A stretch of DNA of 64,000 nucleotides from Armatimonadota bacterium (GTDB lineage: Bacteria; Armatimonadota; HRBIN16): assembly GCA_963677485.1 (NCBI GenBank), contig OY781964.1, positions 1,856,001-1,920,000 of the forward strand, in the 5' to 3' direction. The notes below the pieces were generated by a model, which did no database searches, was not told the DNA's origin, and was given only the letters and a program-made list of their open reading frames with translations. A program made the translations under genes and the position numbers. This document shows positions 36,102 through 44,664 of the stretch, piece after piece; position 1 is the stretch's first letter; each line of letters opens with the position of its first letter.

Positions 36102-39100
36102 GTGCTATACTTAAGAACATACTACTCAGCCGGGGGTAACCGTGTGCGAAGAATGCTCGCTTTACTTCTCATATCGATGGTGATGCTGGGCTCAGGAACA
36201 TCTGCCCAGGATGCCGTCACCTACTATAAACAGGGCGATACTTTTCAGACTAGCGGCCAGTTTGTTGAGGCGGTTAAGTCATATGATAAGGCCATCGAAC
36301 TCGATAATAAGTATGTTGATGCCTTTATCAAGCGCGGCCAGTGTAAGCGTCAACTGAAGCCCCCCGACTATAACGGCTCGCTTGTTGATCTTAGCAGGGC
36401 CATTAAGCTTGACCCAAAGTCCTTCGTTGCTTATAACAGCCGAGGCGGCACCTATAAGGCCATGATGAAATACGATCTGGCTATGTCGGACTTCAATAAG
36501 GCCATTGAACTCGATTCAAAAAGCGAGAAAGCCCTATACAACCGCGGCACTCTGTGGCTGGATACCAAGGAATATACCAAAGCCGTCGCCGATCTGACCC
36601 TCGCCATCAACCGCGTCCCATCATATGTGTTTTCCTACTTTCAACGGGCCAAGGCCTACCAAGCCCTGAAGAGAGATCAAGACGCACTGGCTGATTATGA
36701 TAAAGCGGTGTCTATGGAACCAAAATACGCCGATGCCATGCACTACCGTTCAATATTGAAGCAAGCGATGGGTGATATACAGGGGGCGATTGCAGACTCC
36801 CGTAAAGCGGTTGAAATAGATCCCAAAAGCAACCTCTATAAGGCCCAACTTGGTGATCTCCTTAACGCTAAGCCTGTTGATGCCACCGTCGCTGACACGC
36901 CTGATAAACCGATTGCCTCTGTGAATTCAACATCAATCCCAATCACATTCCTTCCCGATAAACCGGACGATATTGCTATCTGGAACAATCCAGCGACGCC
37001 CTGGCAAAAAGGCGCGACCCCGATAACAGGCAACCTTACTGCTGCCGAGATGAACACTAACATGGATTTCAGCACGTTGGATTTCGACGGTTATCAGTCT
37101 GCCGTCATGGCCGCAATGGGCAGCATGCGGCTCGTATACGGCGATATGGCGCCAGAGGAAGAGGGTCGGTTCCAAGCTGGATGGTCGCCACTGATTGACT
37201 TCCCCACTCCGATAGGGCTCGGATACCTCAACAAGATGAATCCGCTGCTGCAGGAGTTTTTGCGTCTGCGCTCAGTCATGGTCTCAACCGCCATGCAGTT
37301 CGACGAGGCTTGGACTGAGGCAGGGGTTGCCGCTGGCTTCGGACTAGAAGATATGGCTGCCGGAGCACTTCAGAATGCGAATGTATATAAGCAAGGCCTT
37401 GTGAACCTCAAGCAGCGCATGGATGCCGTCGTCCAACAGATCACGGTACTCGGCGATCCACCCAACCCAATCGCCGCCAAACAACGCGCCAGAAAAAAAC
37501 TGGTACAGACGTTAAAGTCATTACCGTTTGTACAGATCACCCCTGCGAATCAGACCGTCTCGCTGGGGCAACCGTGCAAATTCATGCCGACTGTAAGGAA
37601 TATGCCTGCAGCAACTAAGCTATCATGGACGTTTGGTGACGGAAAATCGGCAGTCAAGCCGTCAGCTACCTCAGTTTCGTACGCCTACGCTAAACAGGGC
37701 ACATACACGGTCAAGCTCGTGGTCACAGATGCCAAGACAGGCGCAAAAGTTGGTGCATCCGAGGCAAAAGTGACCATAGGGGATGCTGCTCCCAGAGGTA
37801 GATATGTGTTGATTGATGTGACGTCGAAGATGGAGCCTGAAGAATGGCTTGAGGTTACCGGTGGTCTTGGTAGCATCACTGAAACCCACACCAGTCACGA
37901 AGATCCCAAGGATTCGACGAAAGAGACCGGTAGCTGTAGTGTGGAGTACAGTTGGACGAACCCGCCAAGCTACATAGACCCAAAGGTCAATACTAAGTTT
38001 ACGTCAAGGACAGCCTTCAAGAGTAGATCCGGACGCTGGAGCATCACGGTTCAGGGGCTTAACGCTGCTCTGCAATTCTTCAAGACTGACCAGGTAGATA
38101 TCATGAACCAGATATGGACAGGGCAGTTCAACAGTCTATCAATGATGGATATGGTCAGTATAGGCTCTACATCATTTCTTGATGAACCACGGATTTCAAC
38201 TGATGGGCCCAAAACCGAATGGCACGAAAAACCCGGCAAATATCCCCAAGAGCAGACTTGGACAGCCGAATCCGACCATATCGACACAAAAGATTGCCCA
38301 TTTGCGATGGTTGTGATCAGGGTTAGTTGCGGCTACCATATCGGGTATACATGCTATAAATACAAGTATGACCCCACCGGCGTCGAGCAGGCAATTAGCC
38401 TGGCGAAGATAGAACAAGCATCGAAGGAACAAATAGAGACGCAGACTGCGCAACAAGCCGCAGCTAATGCGCAGGAGCAGTCGAGGAAAGACGCCATCGC
38501 GGGTCATACCAGTACCATCGCGTTCTATACAACCAGCATCACCGGTTTGCGTTCACAGCTAGCTACAGAAACTAATCCTGACCGCACAAAGGAACTGAAC
38601 AGCCGGATCGTTGATGCCCTCACGGAGATACAACACGAGAAGGACCTGATCGCGTCGATCCAAACCGGCACCATCGTGCACAACCGCACGGTAGCAGAGG
38701 ATGTGCAGCACACCCAGCTCATAAACTCATGCTTCCGAGACATTCAGATTAGCAAGCAGATCCAAGACAATGCACTGCGAGCTCGAAACTTCTTCAAAGC
38801 GGCTGATAACCTGCAAGCACTCATCAACATCCTACCTCAGGCCGAGGCGGCTCAACTCCGTGAGTGGGCGAACAAGAAACTGGATGTCAAGGCGATGGTT
38901 AACCGCGATTCCTCCAAATTGAAGCAGATCAGCTCTGCCGTGTTAAACGTCGTTCAAGGTAAGAACCTGGGCGATGAGGCACAGGCCATGGAAGCCATCA
39001 ATACTCTTGAAGAGATCAAATGGGGAGCGAGTACAGCACTCATCGTAGTGGCTCCATTTGCTGCTGCTGAGGGCATCGTCGTCGGCTCGACACTGGCGGC

Positions 39101-40364
39101 GCAGGCTCCTTCATGGATCGCCACCGGATACGGTATCGGCACTGGCTACATCGAGGGTGGGCCAAAGCAGGCTATCATTACCGGCGCACGGTTCTACTCC
39201 TCATTTGTTGATGTCGCCATGGCCGGTATGGAAGGCTACCAGGCTGAAGAAGGTGGAGGGGTGAGTGGCGCAGCCAAGAACGTGGCAATTACGCTTCTCA
39301 TGCGTAAGGGCAGCGAGTTGTCCGCCAAACAGCTCATGCAAGGCAGGCTGAAGGCCAACCAGCCCGTACGCACCTGGAAAGAGGTAGTTGAAGACGCAGA
39401 TTTTGAACAGGCTAAGCAGGACGGCCAGTCGCTTGTGAAAAAGTACCAGGGCGACCAGGATGCATTTGATGCAATGGTGAACAAAAACAAACCTTCAAAC
39501 CAGAAGGCGCAGGAATATATCGCGGCTAATGCCAACAGTCTTGCCAAAACCAAAGAAGGTAAGGTGCTAACGGAATCTCTCGCGACAGTCGAAAGCAGTT
39601 ATACCGCGAAGATGGCCATCAACGAACAGAGCATATCTGCTGCGACAAAGCAAAACTACAACCAGAATCTGGAACTGTTCATGGAAAAGCCGGTCGTCGA
39701 CCGTACCAAGGAACTGATGAAGCAGCGCGGCTGGAACGACTTCGAGATGAATCAGATCCGACATGGTGCCAACATAAACAAGGTGGGACGTGACCATGAC
39801 CTGGCCGTTCAAGAAGAGGGTTTCGATCCTCAAAAAGGCGGGCAGAAGAAGACCATCATGGAGTTTCAACAAGAGTTGGAGCTGTGCCTCAAGCAGGCAT
39901 ATCAAGAAAACAGCGGAGGCCGCACATCAAAGATGGCCGACTGGAAGGCTACCACATCCGTCGACCCAGAGGCCTACATAGACAAGAGTGTACTGAACCT
40001 GAATAAGCTCCGCGATCAAGGTGGTGATCCTTACTCGATGTTGAACAAAGACCTTGCCGAGCAAACAGGCGGAGTCAACCTTTACAAGGTCAAAACGGCA
40101 CTTGCCAAAGGCTCACGTGAGGGCACTGCAGAGGCGTGTCGAACGCTCAGCAAAGAGCTTGACACTAAGATACTTCCGTCATGTCCTAAAGGTAGTTCTC
40201 AGGCAATATACTTCCTGAACTTGAAGAAGGCACTCGACAAAGGGGCGACTGACCCTCGGAATGGCGAAATGATGGTATACGGAATTACCGGCATCCGGCT
40301 CGAGGACCTGGCTTACAAGATCAAATTCGAGCTCATGAATATCACCCAAACAGGCAAGCTATAA
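36102..40364 (+). CDS. Large secreted TPR + PKD domain protein with uncharacterised C-terminal region
   Basis: Signal peptide (real start probably GTG 36144 or ATG 36153), about 6 TPRs, PKD (WTFGDG...GTYTVKLVV), coiled coil, hydrophobic Gly/Ala stretch. Confidence 0.85.
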   Translation: MLYLRTYYSAGGNRVRRMLALLLISMVMLGSGTSAQDAVTYYKQGDTFQTSGQFVEAVKSYDKAIELDNKYVDAFIKRGQCKRQLKPPDYNGSLVDLSRAIKLDPKSFVAYNSRGGTYKAMMKYDLAMSDFNKAIELDSKSEKALYNRGTLWLDTKEYTKAVADLTLAINRVPSYVFSYFQRAKAYQALKRDQDALADYDKAVSMEPKYADAMHYRSILKQAMGDIQGAIADSRKAVEIDPKSNLYKAQLGDLLNAKPVDATVADTPDKPIASVNSTSIPITFLPDKPDDIAIWNNPATPWQKGATPITGNLTAAEMNTNMDFSTLDFDGYQSAVMAAMGSMRLVYGDMAPEEEGRFQAGWSPLIDFPTPIGLGYLNKMNPLLQEFLRLRSVMVSTAMQFDEAWTEAGVAAGFGLEDMAAGALQNANVYKQGLVNLKQRMDAVVQQITVLGDPPNPIAAKQRARKKLVQTLKSLPFVQITPANQTVSLGQPCKFMPTVRNMPAATKLSWTFGDGKSAVKPSATSVSYAYAKQGTYTVKLVVTDAKTGAKVGASEAKVTIGDAAPRGRYVLIDVTSKMEPEEWLEVTGGLGSITETHTSHEDPKDSTKETGSCSVEYSWTNPPSYIDPKVNTKFTSRTAFKSRSGRWSITVQGLNAALQFFKTDQVDIMNQIWTGQFNSLSMMDMVSIGSTSFLDEPRISTDGPKTEWHEKPGKYPQEQTWTAESDHIDTKDCPFAMVVIRVSCGYHIGYTCYKYKYDPTGVEQAISLAKIEQASKEQIETQTAQQAAANAQEQSRKDAIAGHTSTIAFYTTSITGLRSQLATETNPDRTKELNSRIVDALTEIQHEKDLIASIQTGTIVHNRTVAEDVQHTQLINSCFRDIQISKQIQDNALRARNFFKAADNLQALINILPQAEAAQLREWANKKLDVKAMVNRDSSKLKQISSAVLNVVQGKNLGDEAQAMEAINTLEEIKWGASTALIVVAPFAAAEGIVVGSTLAAQAPSWIATGYGIGTGYIEGGPKQAIITGARFYSSFVDVAMAGMEGYQAEEGGGVSGAAKNVAITLLMRKGSELSAKQLMQGRLKANQPVRTWKEVVEDADFEQAKQDGQSLVKKYQGDQDAFDAMVNKNKPSNQKAQEYIAANANSLAKTKEGKVLTESLATVESSYTAKMAINEQSISAATKQNYNQNLELFMEKPVVDRTKELMKQRGWNDFEMNQIRHGANINKVGRDHDLAVQEEGFDPQKGGQKKTIMEFQQELELCLKQAYQENSGGRTSKMADWKATTSVDPEAYIDKSVLNLNKLRDQGGDPYSMLNKDLAEQTGGVNLYKVKTALAKGSREGTAEACRTLSKELDTKILPSCPKGSSQAIYFLNLKKALDKGATDPRNGEMMVYGITGIRLEDLAYKIKFELMNITQTGKL

Positions 40365-42194
40365 GAGACGAGGAGCTATACACTGTATACCGACAGTGTG
40401 CAGAACTTCACAATGCGCACGAACTGGGCCACACGATTCTGGCCCCCATGTTCAAAAACTCGAATTCGAGCATGATAAAAGTCATCTCATGACTATGATG
40501 ACCAAACCTATCTTGGAGATAGTGATGCGGATGCCGCCATATACCCGCACATTGGTGTCGTAGCAACAAAGCCGATTGAAGCATTATGGGATCAGATTTG
40601 ACTATATTGAACGTTAATAGTGCTATACTGATGCCAGACCACACGGTAAGTAGCTTGTCACGTCTGGTATAGGAGTTATACACATGTCTCGTTTACTCGT
40701 TATGACCACTCTGGTATGGCTATCTTTGCTTGCATTGTTATTCCCAGCTTTACCAGTCTATGCATGCAGCACAGTGCCAACGATAGCCTCTTTTACGCCA
40801 ACAAACGGGAAAGCAGGTGATGCAGTAACGATTACCGGCACATACTTCACCTTGGCATCTGTCGTGAGATTCAATGGCATACTTGTGACCGCACTGACCG
40901 TGAAGAACGCAACCACACTCATCTCCACTGTGCCAGTTGGTGCCACAACCGGTGCTATTTCCGTCGCTACTGCATTCGGTACCGCTTCGAGCGCAATCCC
41001 CTTCTACATCGCACCTACGATAAGCTCTCTCTCCCCGACTAGTGGTAAGGTTGGTAACATCATCACGGTCACAGGGACGAGCTTTACTGGAGCAACGGCG
41101 GTTCAATTTAACGGCATGGTTGCGGAATTCAGCGTGGCAAACGACACATCGATCACTTCTACGGTTCCCGAAGGAGCCACTACTGGTAAGATATCGGTCA
41201 CTACCCCAGGCGGAAATGCGGCAAGCGGTGCAGATTTTACGGTCGTTGAGACGTCAACACTAGCAGTTACGATCGATCCTGGTGGTGGATATATCGGGAA
41301 ATTCAGTGATATATCACTCAACTATCATCTGATAGGGCCACAATCATACACTGGAACATTGTTATTAGGCGATGACGGAAAATCAACTATAAGTGGGCTT
41401 CTCCCCGGTGCTTACAAGCTATCTCTCACCGGTAGTCATTGGTTGAGGCGGATTATAAAGGGCATCTATGTAGATGGTTCCAACAGCGTGAACACGGCAT
41501 TAGCCAATGGTGATGCTGATGGCAATGATCAAGTAAACCTGTTCGACTTCGTAGTGCTTGACTCCAAGTTCAACTCAGCCGATATCATGGCCGATCTTGA
41601 TGGCGATGGTCAGGTTAACCTTTTTAATTACATGATCATTGACCTGTATTTTGGCGCACAAGCAGACAGCCTTCTTCTTCTCGAACCTAAGCTGAACCCC
41701 AAAGATGGCGCGGAGATGGTGTGGGTGCCTTCGGGGGAGTTTTTGATGGGATCCAACTCGAATAATTCGGATGAAAGCCCCCAGCGATCGGTCTATCTGG
41801 ACGGATTCTGGATGTATAAAGACGAGGTGACGGTGGGGCAGTATCGCACGTTCTGTCAGGCAACAAGCCGTTCTATGCCTGGTGCACCAGATTGGGGATG
41901 GCAGGATACACACCCGATGGTGAATGTGAGCTGGCAGGACTCGACGGCATATGCCAGTTGGGCAGGTGCTTCGCTTCCTACGGAGGCTCAGTGGGAAAAG
42001 GCTGCTAGAGGTACAGATGGGCGACAGTATCCTTGGGGGGACGTGTGGAACACATCCAAATGTGCCAACGCTGGTAATTCGCCATCGGGTACGAAGCCGG
42101 TAGGCAGCTACCCCTCTGGTCTCAGTCCATTTGAATGCATGGACATGGCGGGCAACACATGGGAGTGGTGCAATGATTGGTATAGTACCACCTA

Positions 42195-43850
42195 AGGCGG
42201 CTTAGCCGCAACCAAAAAAGGAATGATTGCATTCGCCACGTAATATACATTCAAACACCCTTTCGTGAGGTTGCCCAGAATGACATCACTTCAAGAACGC
42301 TATGCAAAGCAGATAGCTGGGGTATATTCATGCTTCGACCGCATAGTTATCACCGGTACAATCCCAGGCTGGTGTCATAGCGACGGAATGGGCATCTATC
42401 TTCATCAACGCAACATCAGGCTATTTGACTTTCCTAAGGAATTTGCCGAACCTCTACGAGATGAGATCAAAGCCAATGCGGAACGCCTTGCCGTTACCAA
42501 CAGCATTGAAATTGAGTATATACGCCGTGCCTCTTCATTTCGAAAAGAAGACCGCATCAAAGAGATCATTAGTAGTCGAGGGTGTCACCCCGGTCTCGTC
42601 CACATATTCTCAGTGTTGGAAAAATGTCCTGCATACACCCCGTGGCACGACAAGATTACCCACAAAACCCGGCTGAATATCAAGGAGACCAAGTGTCTTC
42701 ATTACTACTTCTATTTCATCGATGCAGAGTTTGGACTGTGCTATCTACGAGTTCCGACCTGGGTGCCCTTCCGTCTGCAATTCTATTGTAATGGACACAA
42801 TTATCTCGCGCATTGCCTTCAATCCGAGGGAGTAGTTTTCACTCCACTGGACAACGCCTTTGTAAAAATCGACGACTTTAGCTGTGCTCAGAGGCTGGCA
42901 GACGCTTTTCCTGCTGATAAGCTGCACCATGCGCTGGATGCATTTGCCAGAATGTATTGCCCCGTGATACGGCTTGCTGACAATTCATATCATTGGTCGC
43001 TAATGCAGGTGGAATATGCTACAGACATCGTGTTCAAACGCGCCGAAGACCTCAAAGCCATCTACGATAATCTAGTCAAAACAGCGATACATACGGTAAC
43101 GCCAGAGTCTATCGCGATGTTTCTTGGTAAGAAACTTGATGGGCGAACACTCGCTGAGATCGGCACTGACTACAAGTTCGATCGCCGCATACAAGGCACG
43201 CGCATCAAACACTACATGGGATGGGCTTCTATCAAAATGTATGACAAGCAAGGGATAATCTTGCGTATCGAGACGACTGTGAATGACGTCTCTGAATTTA
43301 AACACTACCGTGAGGTAGAACATCATGATGGGACGACTGAGATTAAATACGCCCCTATGCAAAAGACCATCTACAGCCTTCCTCCATTGAGGGAACTGTT
43401 ATTATCTGCAAACAACAGATATCTTGACTTTCTTTCCGCCCTTGATGACAACAGCGATGGTGAACATCAGATCATCAAAATCGCGACCTCGACCACCCGT
43501 GATCATCGCTCGTATCGAGGATTCAACCTTTTCCTCAAGAAGGATTTGGAATGTCTCATTGCACTTGCTCGCGGAGAGGGATGCATCAGCGGGATCACAA
43601 ACCGTATGCTTCAAAAAGCCTTACCGCAGATGTCCAGCTCTCAGATATCATACTTCATCAAGCGATGCCGAGTATTCCGGCTCGTTAAAAAATGCGGTAA
43701 ACGCTACAAATACTACCTCACTGCACTTGGCAAGCGTATCATCATGGCAGCACTTGCTATTCGCCAGATCGTTGTGCCTAACGCTTTGTGTGGTGCGTAA
43801 TATCAGAATATTCTATACACCGTGTTCAAAATATGGTTGGTAAGATACTA
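42195..43850 (+). mobile_element. 1656-bp insertion element without long TIRs, CTA at both junctions
   Basis: Left junction acCTA|aggcggcttagccgcaacc, right junction gataCTA|ttaccaa. Excision restores the host reading frame. Left-end hairpin GCGGC-tta-GCCGC. Confidence 0.85.
42280..43800 (+). CDS. Putative transposase with Rep_trans-like (rolling-circle initiator) motifs and C-terminal winged helix
   Basis: CFDRIVITG, QVEYATD (~43006), IKMYDK (Tyr codon 43240), LRIETT (43261), wHTH ending YYLTALG. ATG 42280 follows GAGG. It is the only gene in the insertion. Confidence 0.7.
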   Translation: MTSLQERYAKQIAGVYSCFDRIVITGTIPGWCHSDGMGIYLHQRNIRLFDFPKEFAEPLRDEIKANAERLAVTNSIEIEYIRRASSFRKEDRIKEIISSRGCHPGLVHIFSVLEKCPAYTPWHDKITHKTRLNIKETKCLHYYFYFIDAEFGLCYLRVPTWVPFRLQFYCNGHNYLAHCLQSEGVVFTPLDNAFVKIDDFSCAQRLADAFPADKLHHALDAFARMYCPVIRLADNSYHWSLMQVEYATDIVFKRAEDLKAIYDNLVKTAIHTVTPESIAMFLGKKLDGRTLAEIGTDYKFDRRIQGTRIKHYMGWASIKMYDKQGIILRIETTVNDVSEFKHYREVEHHDGTTEIKYAPMQKTIYSLPPLRELLLSANNRYLDFLSALDDNSDGEHQIIKIATSTTRDHRSYRGFNLFLKKDLECLIALARGEGCISGITNRMLQKALPQMSSSQISYFIKRCRVFRLVKKCGKRYKYYLTALGKRIIMAALAIRQIVVPNALCGA

Positions 43851-44664
43851 TTACCAAATAGCACCTGGCAGAAACCCTCTCGGTCCCGTTGATGGCCAAT
43901 ATCGGCTGATGCGTGGTGGGTCGTGGCTCGACGGTGCCGAAGCCAGTTCGTTCCGCTGTTCGTTCCGAACCTACAATCTACCTACGAACCGGTACATCAG
44001 CATCGGCTTTCGTTGCGCCATGACGGAATAGCGGCTTGCGCATTGCCAAGACAGCCGCCTCTGCCCATTTGCGAGTATGCGATCAAGCCCTACACACCAC
44101 GGTTTTGCACAGGTGTCATCCGCATACCTGGCGGCTCCATGGGCAAGCCGGGTCTCAGTAAGGCCTTTACGCAAGGAAAATACATCGGCATCAACTGGAA
44201 TGTATCTGGTGCTGATACCGCCGAGAAATGCCTGGCTGCGAGCATCATTGCAGCTAATGTGAAACAGTGGGCGAATAAACGGCAATGCCTGGTGGTTTTG
44301 GACCACGATTCCTCTATGAAGAAGAGCCTTCCTGCTGCTTTATAGATGATCATCCCCTACTATCTTTCGAAGGGGTATCACTTCGGTACACTCTGTTCCG
44401 ATAGCTCCTGGCGAAAAGCCGTGGCTGCCGGACTGGTTCCACAAGAGCCCGCTTATACAATCAATAACAAAATCAAGCCGAAGTTATGAGTGGTTTTCCT
44501 GTCCCCAGACAACATGATGACCGCGCGTTGAATGCCTGGTTTCCGTGCAGCAGGCTTGCCCGTGGCCTGCAGATGGAGGTAAAATGCATTCGGTGATACC
44601 GCATTTTGCCTCAACCAACCGATGATTCCCCGCTCATGCGGGTTGATACAAGGAGATTCAGCTT

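Follow-up and report, generated by a model that had tools for sequence, protein, structure and literature searches.

A probable Rep_trans-like tyrosine nickase as the transposase of a single-gene insertion sequence from a large, unclassified family in an Armatimonadota bacterium

A stretch of 64,000 nucleotides from the genome of an Armatimonadota bacterium (GTDB lineage HRBIN16; assembly GCA_963677485.1, contig OY781964.1, forward-strand positions 1,856,001 to 1,920,000; hereafter, the window) contains an insertion sequence (IS) of 1656 bp with a single gene, which interrupts a host gene in the middle of a domain. The interrupted gene encodes a TIG plus FGE-sulfatase protein according to Pfam, and its PF03781 match is divided by the element, as had been claimed in a preliminary description made from the sequence letters. 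The CTA triplets noticed there at both junctions were found at 42192-42194 and 43848-43850. When the 1656 bp were deleted, the host reading frame was regained (...ACC ACC TAT TAC CAA...), the last three bases of the host 5' part (CCT) corresponding to the left half of the target and the first base of the 3' part (A) to the right half. The boundary can be set no finer than the shared CTA, 42192-43847 and 42195-43850 being equivalent descriptions of the same insertion. The features of the locus are collected in Table 1.

The genome (G000), a single contig of 5.22 Mb, was searched for further copies of the element, and 22 copies were found in total, 19 of them at 100% identity, two with single changes and one at 99%. 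A motif scan of the genome revealed 22 left ends and 22 right ends, all from full-length copies, and no solo ends or miniatures; one further match, with three mismatches, was chance-like. The length was 1656 bp in all the copies with an exact left end (21/21), CTA was present at both junctions in 22/22, and no one-ended or read-through products were detected among the 22 copies. An empty-site allele, the lack of which had been named beforehand as a counter-argument, was found for one copy (at 920,254), the CTA-element-CTA of G000 being replaced by a lone CTG in the same-genus genome G001, with flanks that align on either side. The element part of the query had no match in a DNA search of G001 and G002, and therefore its expansion seems lineage-specific. 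Thus, the mobility proposed in the preliminary description was borne out by the copy number, the empty site and the regained frame, and the element is a real, active insertion sequence, recently mobile, of an unannotated family.

Table 1. Features of the interrupted locus, in window coordinates
Feature	Position	Strand	Details
Host open reading frame (ORF) left of the element	40684-42195	+	Carries the PF03781 3-194 match
Host gene, 5' part	40684..42193	+	PF03781 positions 3-194, E 5.5e-41; PF01833 TIG
Insertion sequence, 1656 bp	42194..43849	+	Break taken as CT|A at both ends; stretch shared by 22 copies
Left end	42194..42221	+	AAG, hairpin GCGGC-TTA-GCCGC (42197-42209), box AACCAAAAAAGG (42210-42221)
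Single gene, 506-aa protein	42280..43800	+	ATG at 42280, stop included; GTG at 42265 would add 5 residues
Catalytic core (predicted), residues 1-392	42280..43455	+	Two TBP-like beta-alpha-beta(4+)-alpha halves; AlphaFold2, Foldseek, invariant columns
MarR/ArsR-like winged helix-turn-helix, ~residues 420-505	43537..43797	+	PDB profile, Foldseek
Right end	43841..43849	+	TAAGATACT; family consensus TAAG-R-N-ACT
Host ORF right of the element	43822-44031	+	Carries the PF03781 202-254 match
Host gene, 3' part	43850..44031	+	PF03781 positions 202-254, E 2.4e-7

The ends of the element were defined by comparison with its relatives. In six other genomes with two to seven copies each, the shared stretch starts and stops alike, and the alignment of homologue flanks proposed in the preliminary description yielded conserved ends and a target across phyla. 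The consensus of 53 distinct left ends from many phyla consists of CCTAA(C/G), a 5-bp GC stem with a 3-nt loop, and AACCAAA(C/A)AGG, and the right-end consensus was recovered in 33 distinct end pairs and in other multi-copy genomes. Both ends are mutually unlike, yet they are conserved in Armatimonadota, Chloroflexota, Acidobacteriota, Planctomycetota, Pseudomonadota and archaeal metagenome-assembled genomes (MAGs). No terminal inverted repeats were found in the region 42150-43900, where the longest inverted pairs are internal and 70-81% complementary, in agreement with the earlier claim that long ones are absent.

The hairpin described at the left end is present in the window copy, and its stem pairs in 95.1% of the cells of the family alignment. 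Two of the five stem pairs show compensatory changes (13 cells; CG 47, GC 4 and UA 2 for one, CG 46 and UA 7 for the other), and no broken cells were detected at either of them. The covariation score was not reached by any of 500 shuffles, and slid registers paired in at most 38.5% of the cells. The short inversion that had also been described, CAACCA (42209-42214) with TGGTTG (43834-43839), is present in the window copy, but across the family it does not exceed the level of shuffled sequences, the mean longest end-to-end complementarity of the 33 end pairs being 4.76 vs. 4.52 ± 0.18. No covariation was seen by eye between right-end positions -6 to -4 and left-end positions +3 to +5.

Regarding the target, the left flank is CCT in 21/21 copies with exact ends and G never appears at -4, and the right flank has A at +1 in 21/21 and AA in 18/21, G never appearing at +3. 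Elsewhere, A occupies +1 in 31 of 33 end pairs, and both flank bases are A in 24 of the 31 pairs that extend to two. The position next to ACT is occupied by a, t, a, c, c, a and t in the seven copies of an Acidobacteriaceae MAG, and therefore it belongs to the flank and not to the element. From these sequences, the simplest description would be an element AA(G/C)...ACT inserted at CCT|A(A), CT|A(A) being common to both junctions and the target. Integration of the XerCD/dif type, as in CTXphi, was considered and rejected, because the 22 sites have only CCTAA in common, as was a retroelement or group II intron, there being no reverse transcriptase and the lone ORF having another fold.

The gene for the 506-aa protein is the only one in each full-length element examined. 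At least 7,998 homologues were detected at E<=1e-3 among 8,000 candidates scored, as well as at least 6,547 clusters at this threshold (659 at E<=1e-30) in a library clustered at 50% identity. Of 377 candidate stretches in species-representative genomes, 363 were confirmed; they come from many bacterial phyla and from some archaeal MAGs. We take the element to be an autonomous insertion sequence of a very large and unclassified family. Contigs with homologues are typically of 1.6-2.5 kb, as expected because a repeat of this kind breaks assemblies. One archaeal MAG (G032, which includes locus L045) has a near-full copy with a single in-frame TGA in addition to six degraded gene fragments with many stops; therefore, the family has long been resident there.

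Searches with the protein sequence gave no named relatives. No family was matched in Pfam at E<=1, and the matches in NCBIfam (best E 0.12) and PHROGs (best E 0.18) were noise; with phmmer the best E against PDB sequences was 0.91. In the ESM Atlas only unnamed clusters of the family itself were matched (HTH_5 on 12% of one of them), residues 1-392 being without a named cluster. The public names of the homologues are 'hypothetical protein', 'MarR family' or 'ArsR family transcriptional regulator'.

The structure predicted with AlphaFold2 had a pLDDT of 93.4 and a pTM of 0.80 for the whole protein, and of 95.8 and 0.92, respectively, for residues 1-392. The latter form a core whose fold resembles the TATA-binding protein (TBP), and a winged helix follows. 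A profile of the family matched the MarR protein 3bj6_A in the PDB (E 0.013, profile positions 429-500), and Foldseek with the whole protein matched MarR/ArsR/SmtB winged helices with probabilities of 0.97-1.00. These matches and the public records agree with the preliminary description, in which a C-terminal winged helix and misleading MarR labels had been anticipated. For each query, the whole protein or the core, about 50 matches were listed by Foldseek against the PDB, none of which reached E<=1e-3 (best 1.0e-3). With the core, TBP was matched recurrently (1ais_A, probability 0.87; 1mp9_B, 0.94), and against BFVD there were nine matches at E<=1e-3, including a viral TBP (E 2.5e-4, probability 0.99) and several nameless proteins. 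RNase H-like, HUH/RRM and serine- or tyrosine-recombinase folds were absent among the Foldseek matches listed; as Pfam and NCBIfam were also blank, the earlier statement that the protein has no DDE, HUH, serine- or tyrosine-recombinase signature held, and the RNase H/DDE or other known transposase fold that would have spoken against it did not appear. A complex prediction for two copies of the core (score 0.01, mark 0.42) was neither for nor against dimerisation.

Since the winged helix is real and public records label the homologues as MarR/ArsR regulators, the protein could be a DNA-binding regulator or a passenger of an element moved in trans by another enzyme. We consider this very improbable: no other gene is found in the full-length elements examined, the same ends are conserved across phyla, around 390 of the 506 residues constitute a separate, highly conserved core with invariant D, E, K, Y and R residues, and the gene-less miniatures described below keep only the ends, as expected if the protein acts on them.

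The alignment of 74 homologues (28-77% identity) revealed 15 invariant columns: D20, R21, G105, Y143, Y145, G152, P163, N171, N192, E245, F252, K319, Y321, R329 and E331. The three motifs singled out in the preliminary description fall on such residues and were located as described there, QVEYATD at residues 243-249, KMYDK at 319-323 and LRIE at 328-331, with the codon of Tyr321 at 43240-43242. These motifs had been likened to the active site of the Rep_trans initiators. In these enzymes, the metal ligands D46, D142 and E214 are located each on its own strand of a TBP sheet, the nucleophile Y191 is flanked by R189 and K193, and R140-x-D142-x-A144-x-D146 and R212-x-E214 are strictly conserved (Carr et al., 2016, PMC4797284). 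The order of the motifs is N' (D), I (RxD), II (T/SxY/ExG), III (YxK) and IV (RxE) (PMC5714925, PMC4797284). An alignment of Rep_trans proteins assembled for comparison (10 sequences, around eight independent, from plasmids and from 3 of 300 gammaproteobacterial genomes) reproduced the published invariants; among the 120 matches listed in a RepC homologue search all had at least 86% identity, and no diverse profile was obtained. One Rep from the gammaproteobacterial sample (L114, G191:C184:1-2211) is identical to that of a Staphylococcus epidermidis plasmid (L119) and is probably a contamination of that assembly.

In the predicted core, D20 is located on the first strand (12-27) and Q243-x-E245-x-A247-x-D249, which parallels R140-x-D142-x-A144-x-D146 of Rep_trans, on the first strand of the second half (238-252), followed by K319-x-Y321-x-K323 on strand 316-323 and R329-x-E331 on the next one (327-334). 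The three motifs occupy consecutive strands of the TBP-like sheet. Conservation at all these positions (D20, QxE245(xAxD249), KxY321xK323 and RxE331) is complete or reaches at least 90%, and six of the 15 invariant residues (D20, E245, K319, Y321, R329 and E331) follow the Rep_trans catalytic order. A local hhalign of residues 232-345 with RepC 132-222, regions picked by hand from the hypothesis itself, was weak (E 0.014, probability 3%), and put in register Q243 with R140, E245 with D142, A247 with A144, D249 with D146, K319 with R189, Y321 with Y191 and K323 with K193.

The DNA points in the same direction. According to Laroussi et al. (2022, PMC9371924), MOBT relaxases and Rep_trans origins have in common a conserved nick site, CT'AA, which is located in a GC-rich hairpin, within its loop. 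In the insertion sequence, CT|AA is present at the left junction, in the target and, in 18/21 copies, at the right junction, with a covarying GC hairpin 3 nt from it on the left, and this match is the strongest independent line because it is drawn from DNA and not from the protein. The likeness to Rep_trans and MOBT proteins (RepC/RepD of pT181/pC221, RepSTK1, NicK of ICEBs1, RelSt3) includes a predicted TBP-like fold with a separate DNA-binding domain, the ordered strand residues D, (R/Q)-x-(D/E)-x-A-x-D, (R/K)-x-Y-x-K and R-x-E, and CT|AA adjoining a GC-rich hairpin. In contrast to them, the core of the element protein is about twice as large, its DNA-binding domain is a MarR-like winged helix-turn-helix (wHTH), motif II is not recognisable, the candidate nick motif is placed beyond the loop of the hairpin and sequence homology is not detectable; also, the element is a chromosomal, multi-copy IS with two ends and a target, and not a replicon origin or an oriT. 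The available part of a review of Rep_trans proteins gives roles in plasmids, phages and integrative and conjugative elements (ICEs), an insertion sequence not being among them (PMC5714925).

Further relatives could be the Rep-Arvir initiators (DUF7845, PF25227) of archaeal pleolipoviruses and plasmids, in which a large TBP-like catalytic domain is followed by a MarR-like wHTH (PMC13107129). The element protein has the same order of domains, with the core at 1-392 and the wHTH at ~420-505, and in both cases the tie to Rep_trans is seen by structure and not by sequence, Foldseek giving winged helices in the PDB and TBPs in the viral library. Both have an acidic residue near the N-terminus and 76 residues from the second acid to the tyrosine (D207-Y283 in Rep-Arvir, E245-Y321 here). 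The context of the tyrosine differs (KHYYM vs. IKMYDK), and whereas Rep-Arvir replicates viral or plasmid circles, the element protein is located in a mainly bacterial transposable element.

On this evidence we favour, with some reservation, the interpretation that the element is driven by a Rep_trans-like tyrosine nickase. The interpretation of the preliminary description was thereby supported in part: the order of the motifs noticed there, together with the TBP-like sheet and CT|AA, speaks for it, whereas sequence homology to Rep_trans was not detected and no Rep_trans entry was among the roughly 50 matches listed in either PDB Foldseek search. This absence is one of several observations that weigh against the interpretation. 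The TBP matches are partial, with a TM of ~0.25 by query and 0.47 by target and an rmsd of 10-13 Å. The full-length hhalign of the 74 homologues with the 10 Rep_trans proteins was not significant (probability 0.5%, E 0.12) and matched the motifs of Rep_trans to the N-terminal half, Y143 facing Y191; with a single RepC fragment the probability was 0.08%. The Rep_trans model PF02486 gave no match in the whole genome, with its 22 gene copies, and matched a Bacillus subtilis control. Similarly, the Rep-Arvir model PF25227 had no match in the whole genome at E<=1 and was positive with a Haloferax control, and the hhalign of the 74 homologues with eight pleolipovirus DUF7845 proteins gave a probability of 0.2%; this set was taken from pleolipovirus records, the family not being found in 301 genomes of one archaeal phylum. 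Regarding the motifs, no clear equivalent of motif II (T/S-x-Y/E-x-G) was seen, Q and E replace the R and D of motif I, the clustering of D20, E245, E331 and Y321 in space is deduced from strand order only, and the invariant Y143 and Y145 have no role in the proposed site, although they might form a second nucleophile site. As for the DNA, CT|AA is located 3 nt 5' of the stem and not in the loop as in plasmids and ICEs, and the right end has no matching GC hairpin. The gene strand is on the lagging side in 15/22 copies if the origin is assumed at the skew minimum (2.15 Mb), a bias that is not significant (binomial p ~0.13) and depends on an uncertain origin position.

A last point of this kind is that the shared CTA would fit equally well a 2-3-bp duplication of a fixed target. 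Such a duplication (3 bp, CTA; 2 bp in some lineages) would be produced by a new kind of metal-dependent, DDE-style transposase, either cut-and-paste or copy-paste, with D20, E245 and E331 as its hydrolytic/transesterification triad and no covalent tyrosine. The CTA at both junctions of all 22 copies, with one triplet in the empty site, agrees with this alternative, as do the three invariant acidic residues and the lack of sequence homology to any tyrosine nickase. Nevertheless, terminal inverted repeats are lacking and the two ends do not resemble each other, neither an RNase H-like nor another transposase fold was among the Foldseek matches listed, and the invariant K-x-Y-x-K strand adjoining R-x-E would be left without explanation. 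Furthermore, the C before the left CTA is constant (21/21), the base preceding the right CTA is part of the element, and in one MAG the right junction is ACT + N, so at most CT is shared. We regard a DDE-style enzyme as quite unlikely.

Evidence on how the ends are handled came from metagenomes, in which a degenerate pattern of a right end abutting a left end was found in 23 stretches, 8/23 with the gene. Two of them (L140 and L152) contain element-to-element joints. In two others, the sequence after the joint is the left end of the contig itself (110/110 nt in L141, 64/64 nt in L156), which indicates either a tandem dimer or an assembled circular form. Gene-less units of 64-235 bp, running from a left to a right end, lie at the joints or next to them. 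These miniatures were located in L136 (6094-6516 and 8713-8924), L138, L142, L143, L146, L147, L155 and L157, often head-to-tail with one another or with full elements, with three 211-bp units in L136, two of them identical. Joints and miniatures show that the ends are the cis-acting parts, that miniatures exist and that the ends are joined precisely as ACT|AA. Against an intermediate with joined ends, the head-to-tail joints could come from insertion beside a resident copy. No excision or circle joint at the element ends was detected in four sequence runs, all of them contigs, in which rare forms are invisible; two metagenome runs carry the element but not the flanks of the window copy.

If the element is driven by a Rep_trans-like nickase, the single protein would be its transposase, with a metal-dependent TBP-fold tyrosine nickase core and a MarR-like winged helix whose probable role is to recognise the conserved ends and to position the enzyme there. 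The steps that we infer, including the phosphotyrosine chemistry and the circular or single-stranded intermediate, would be as follows. In a first step, one strand would be cut at 5'-CT|AA-3', at CCT|AAG in the left junction, 3 nt before the hairpin, and at ACT|A in the right one, Tyr321 being linked to the 5' phosphate and D20, E245 and E331 holding the metal. In a second step, the freed strand or a rolling-circle copy would be joined right-to-left, rebuilding CT|AA with the joint ...TAAGATACT|AAGGCGGC... Finally, the reverse reaction would insert the strand at a new CCT|AA, with no true duplication of the target. In this way the element would work like the HUH-driven IS200/IS605 or IS91, by means of an unrelated enzyme.

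Regarding the second step, both a strand peeled out as in IS608 and one copied by rolling circle as in IS91 stand: the exact 1656-bp copies without read-through favour precise termination, and a replicative route agrees with the tandem arrays and with the expansion in copy number. A variant differing in this step only keeps the Rep_trans-like nickase and replaces the excised circle by rolling-circle copying of double-stranded DNA in the style of IS91, with a nick at the left end, displacement synthesis and a stop at the right end. The growth to 22 near-identical copies and the head-to-tail arrays of elements and miniatures in metagenome contigs, including the tandem 211-bp units, would be explained by it, and Rep_trans proteins have been described as rolling-circle initiators that recruit a helicase (PMC4797284). 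However, the exact-end copies are all exactly 1656 bp long (21/21), the genome has no read-through or one-ended products and no solo ends, and the tandem arrays are also possible by insertion at the CT|AA of each right junction, so that this variant appears unlikely.

Like IS200/IS605 elements (IS608, ISDra2), the element is small, lacks terminal inverted repeats, has a subterminal hairpin, inserts 3' of a fixed short sequence with a related motif at the right end, and has a predicted end-to-end intermediate; its fixed target is CCT|A(A), with the shared CTA indistinguishable from a duplication. Unlike them, it has no Y1_Tnp/HUH match in Pfam or NCBIfam, an enzyme ~3.5 times larger, a conserved hairpin at the left end only and no significant orientation bias with respect to replication. 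With IS91/ISCR and Helitron elements it shares the single gene, the absence of inverted repeats, the unlike ends, a tetranucleotide-type target and the head-to-tail tandems. In contrast to the HUH Y2 enzymes of IS91/ISCR, there is no HUH domain and a single invariant Tyr is present in the candidate site instead of a Y2 pair; nor were one-ended or read-through products found among the 22 copies. It also differs from DDE insertion sequences with fixed targets (IS5- and IS630-type), as it has no terminal inverted repeats and no DDE family was matched in Pfam or NCBIfam. Since the fold class, motif order, domain order and nick motif are alike and the Rep_trans and Rep-Arvir sequence models gave no match, the family was treated as separate, at most within the Rep_trans/Rep-Arvir structural superfamily.

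Other observations were made on the genome and the locus. Directly upstream of the interrupted gene, there is an ORF of 1420 aa with TPR-like N-terminal repeats (window 36102-40364, plus strand). The cumulative GC-skew minimum (2.15 Mb) and dnaA (1.20 Mb, 1204144-1204629) are located ~0.95 Mb apart in G000, and the gene-strand bias is flat across 0.25 to 2.25 Mb, which suggests rearrangements, possibly between insertion-sequence copies. Nine equal-scoring matches to the Bac_DnaA AAA+ profile were detected in 262-aa open frames of G000:C1 (for example, 830584-830910, 1694753-1695079 and 5199360-5199686), which look like the helper ATPase of another multi-copy IS, we would guess the IS21-type IstB. 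A repeat of ~100-170 bp (L010:4305-4615) in the right flank of the copy at G000:C1:2650754 had 80 matches in G001; it is dispersed, intergenic and very abundant, and has no relation to the element.

No paper on a Rep_trans- or TBP-fold transposase, or on this family, was found in the literature searched, ISfinder, TnCentral and supplements being outside this search, and the transposase type is probably new to the literature. Chemistry is the basis for classifying transposases, and the set of classes has remained stable for years; the HUH nickase fold serves plasmid replication, conjugation, viruses and transposition. A transposase with a Rep_trans fold would add a class to that set and mirror the versatility of HUH. 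We put at slightly better than even the chances that the family represents a further mechanistic class beside the DDE, DEDD, HUH, serine and tyrosine-recombinase ones, that of insertion sequences with a TBP-fold tyrosine nickase of the Rep_trans/Rep-Arvir superfamily, cutting and rejoining a single strand at CT|AA.

With a single protein, a 5-nt target and simple ends, the system should be easy to test in vitro, and if it works as proposed, the protein may serve as a sequence-specific enzyme for cutting and joining single-strand DNA. As at least 6,547 clusters are labelled as 'hypothetical', 'MarR' or 'ArsR regulator', the gene disruptions, repeats and assembly breaks caused by the element are missed. 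The unannotated members of the family number in the thousands, spread over many bacterial phyla and a part of the archaea, and have their own miniatures; if the proposal is true, rolling-circle plasmids, ICE relaxases, archaeal virus initiators and transposons would be joined through them in a second, HUH-independent lineage.

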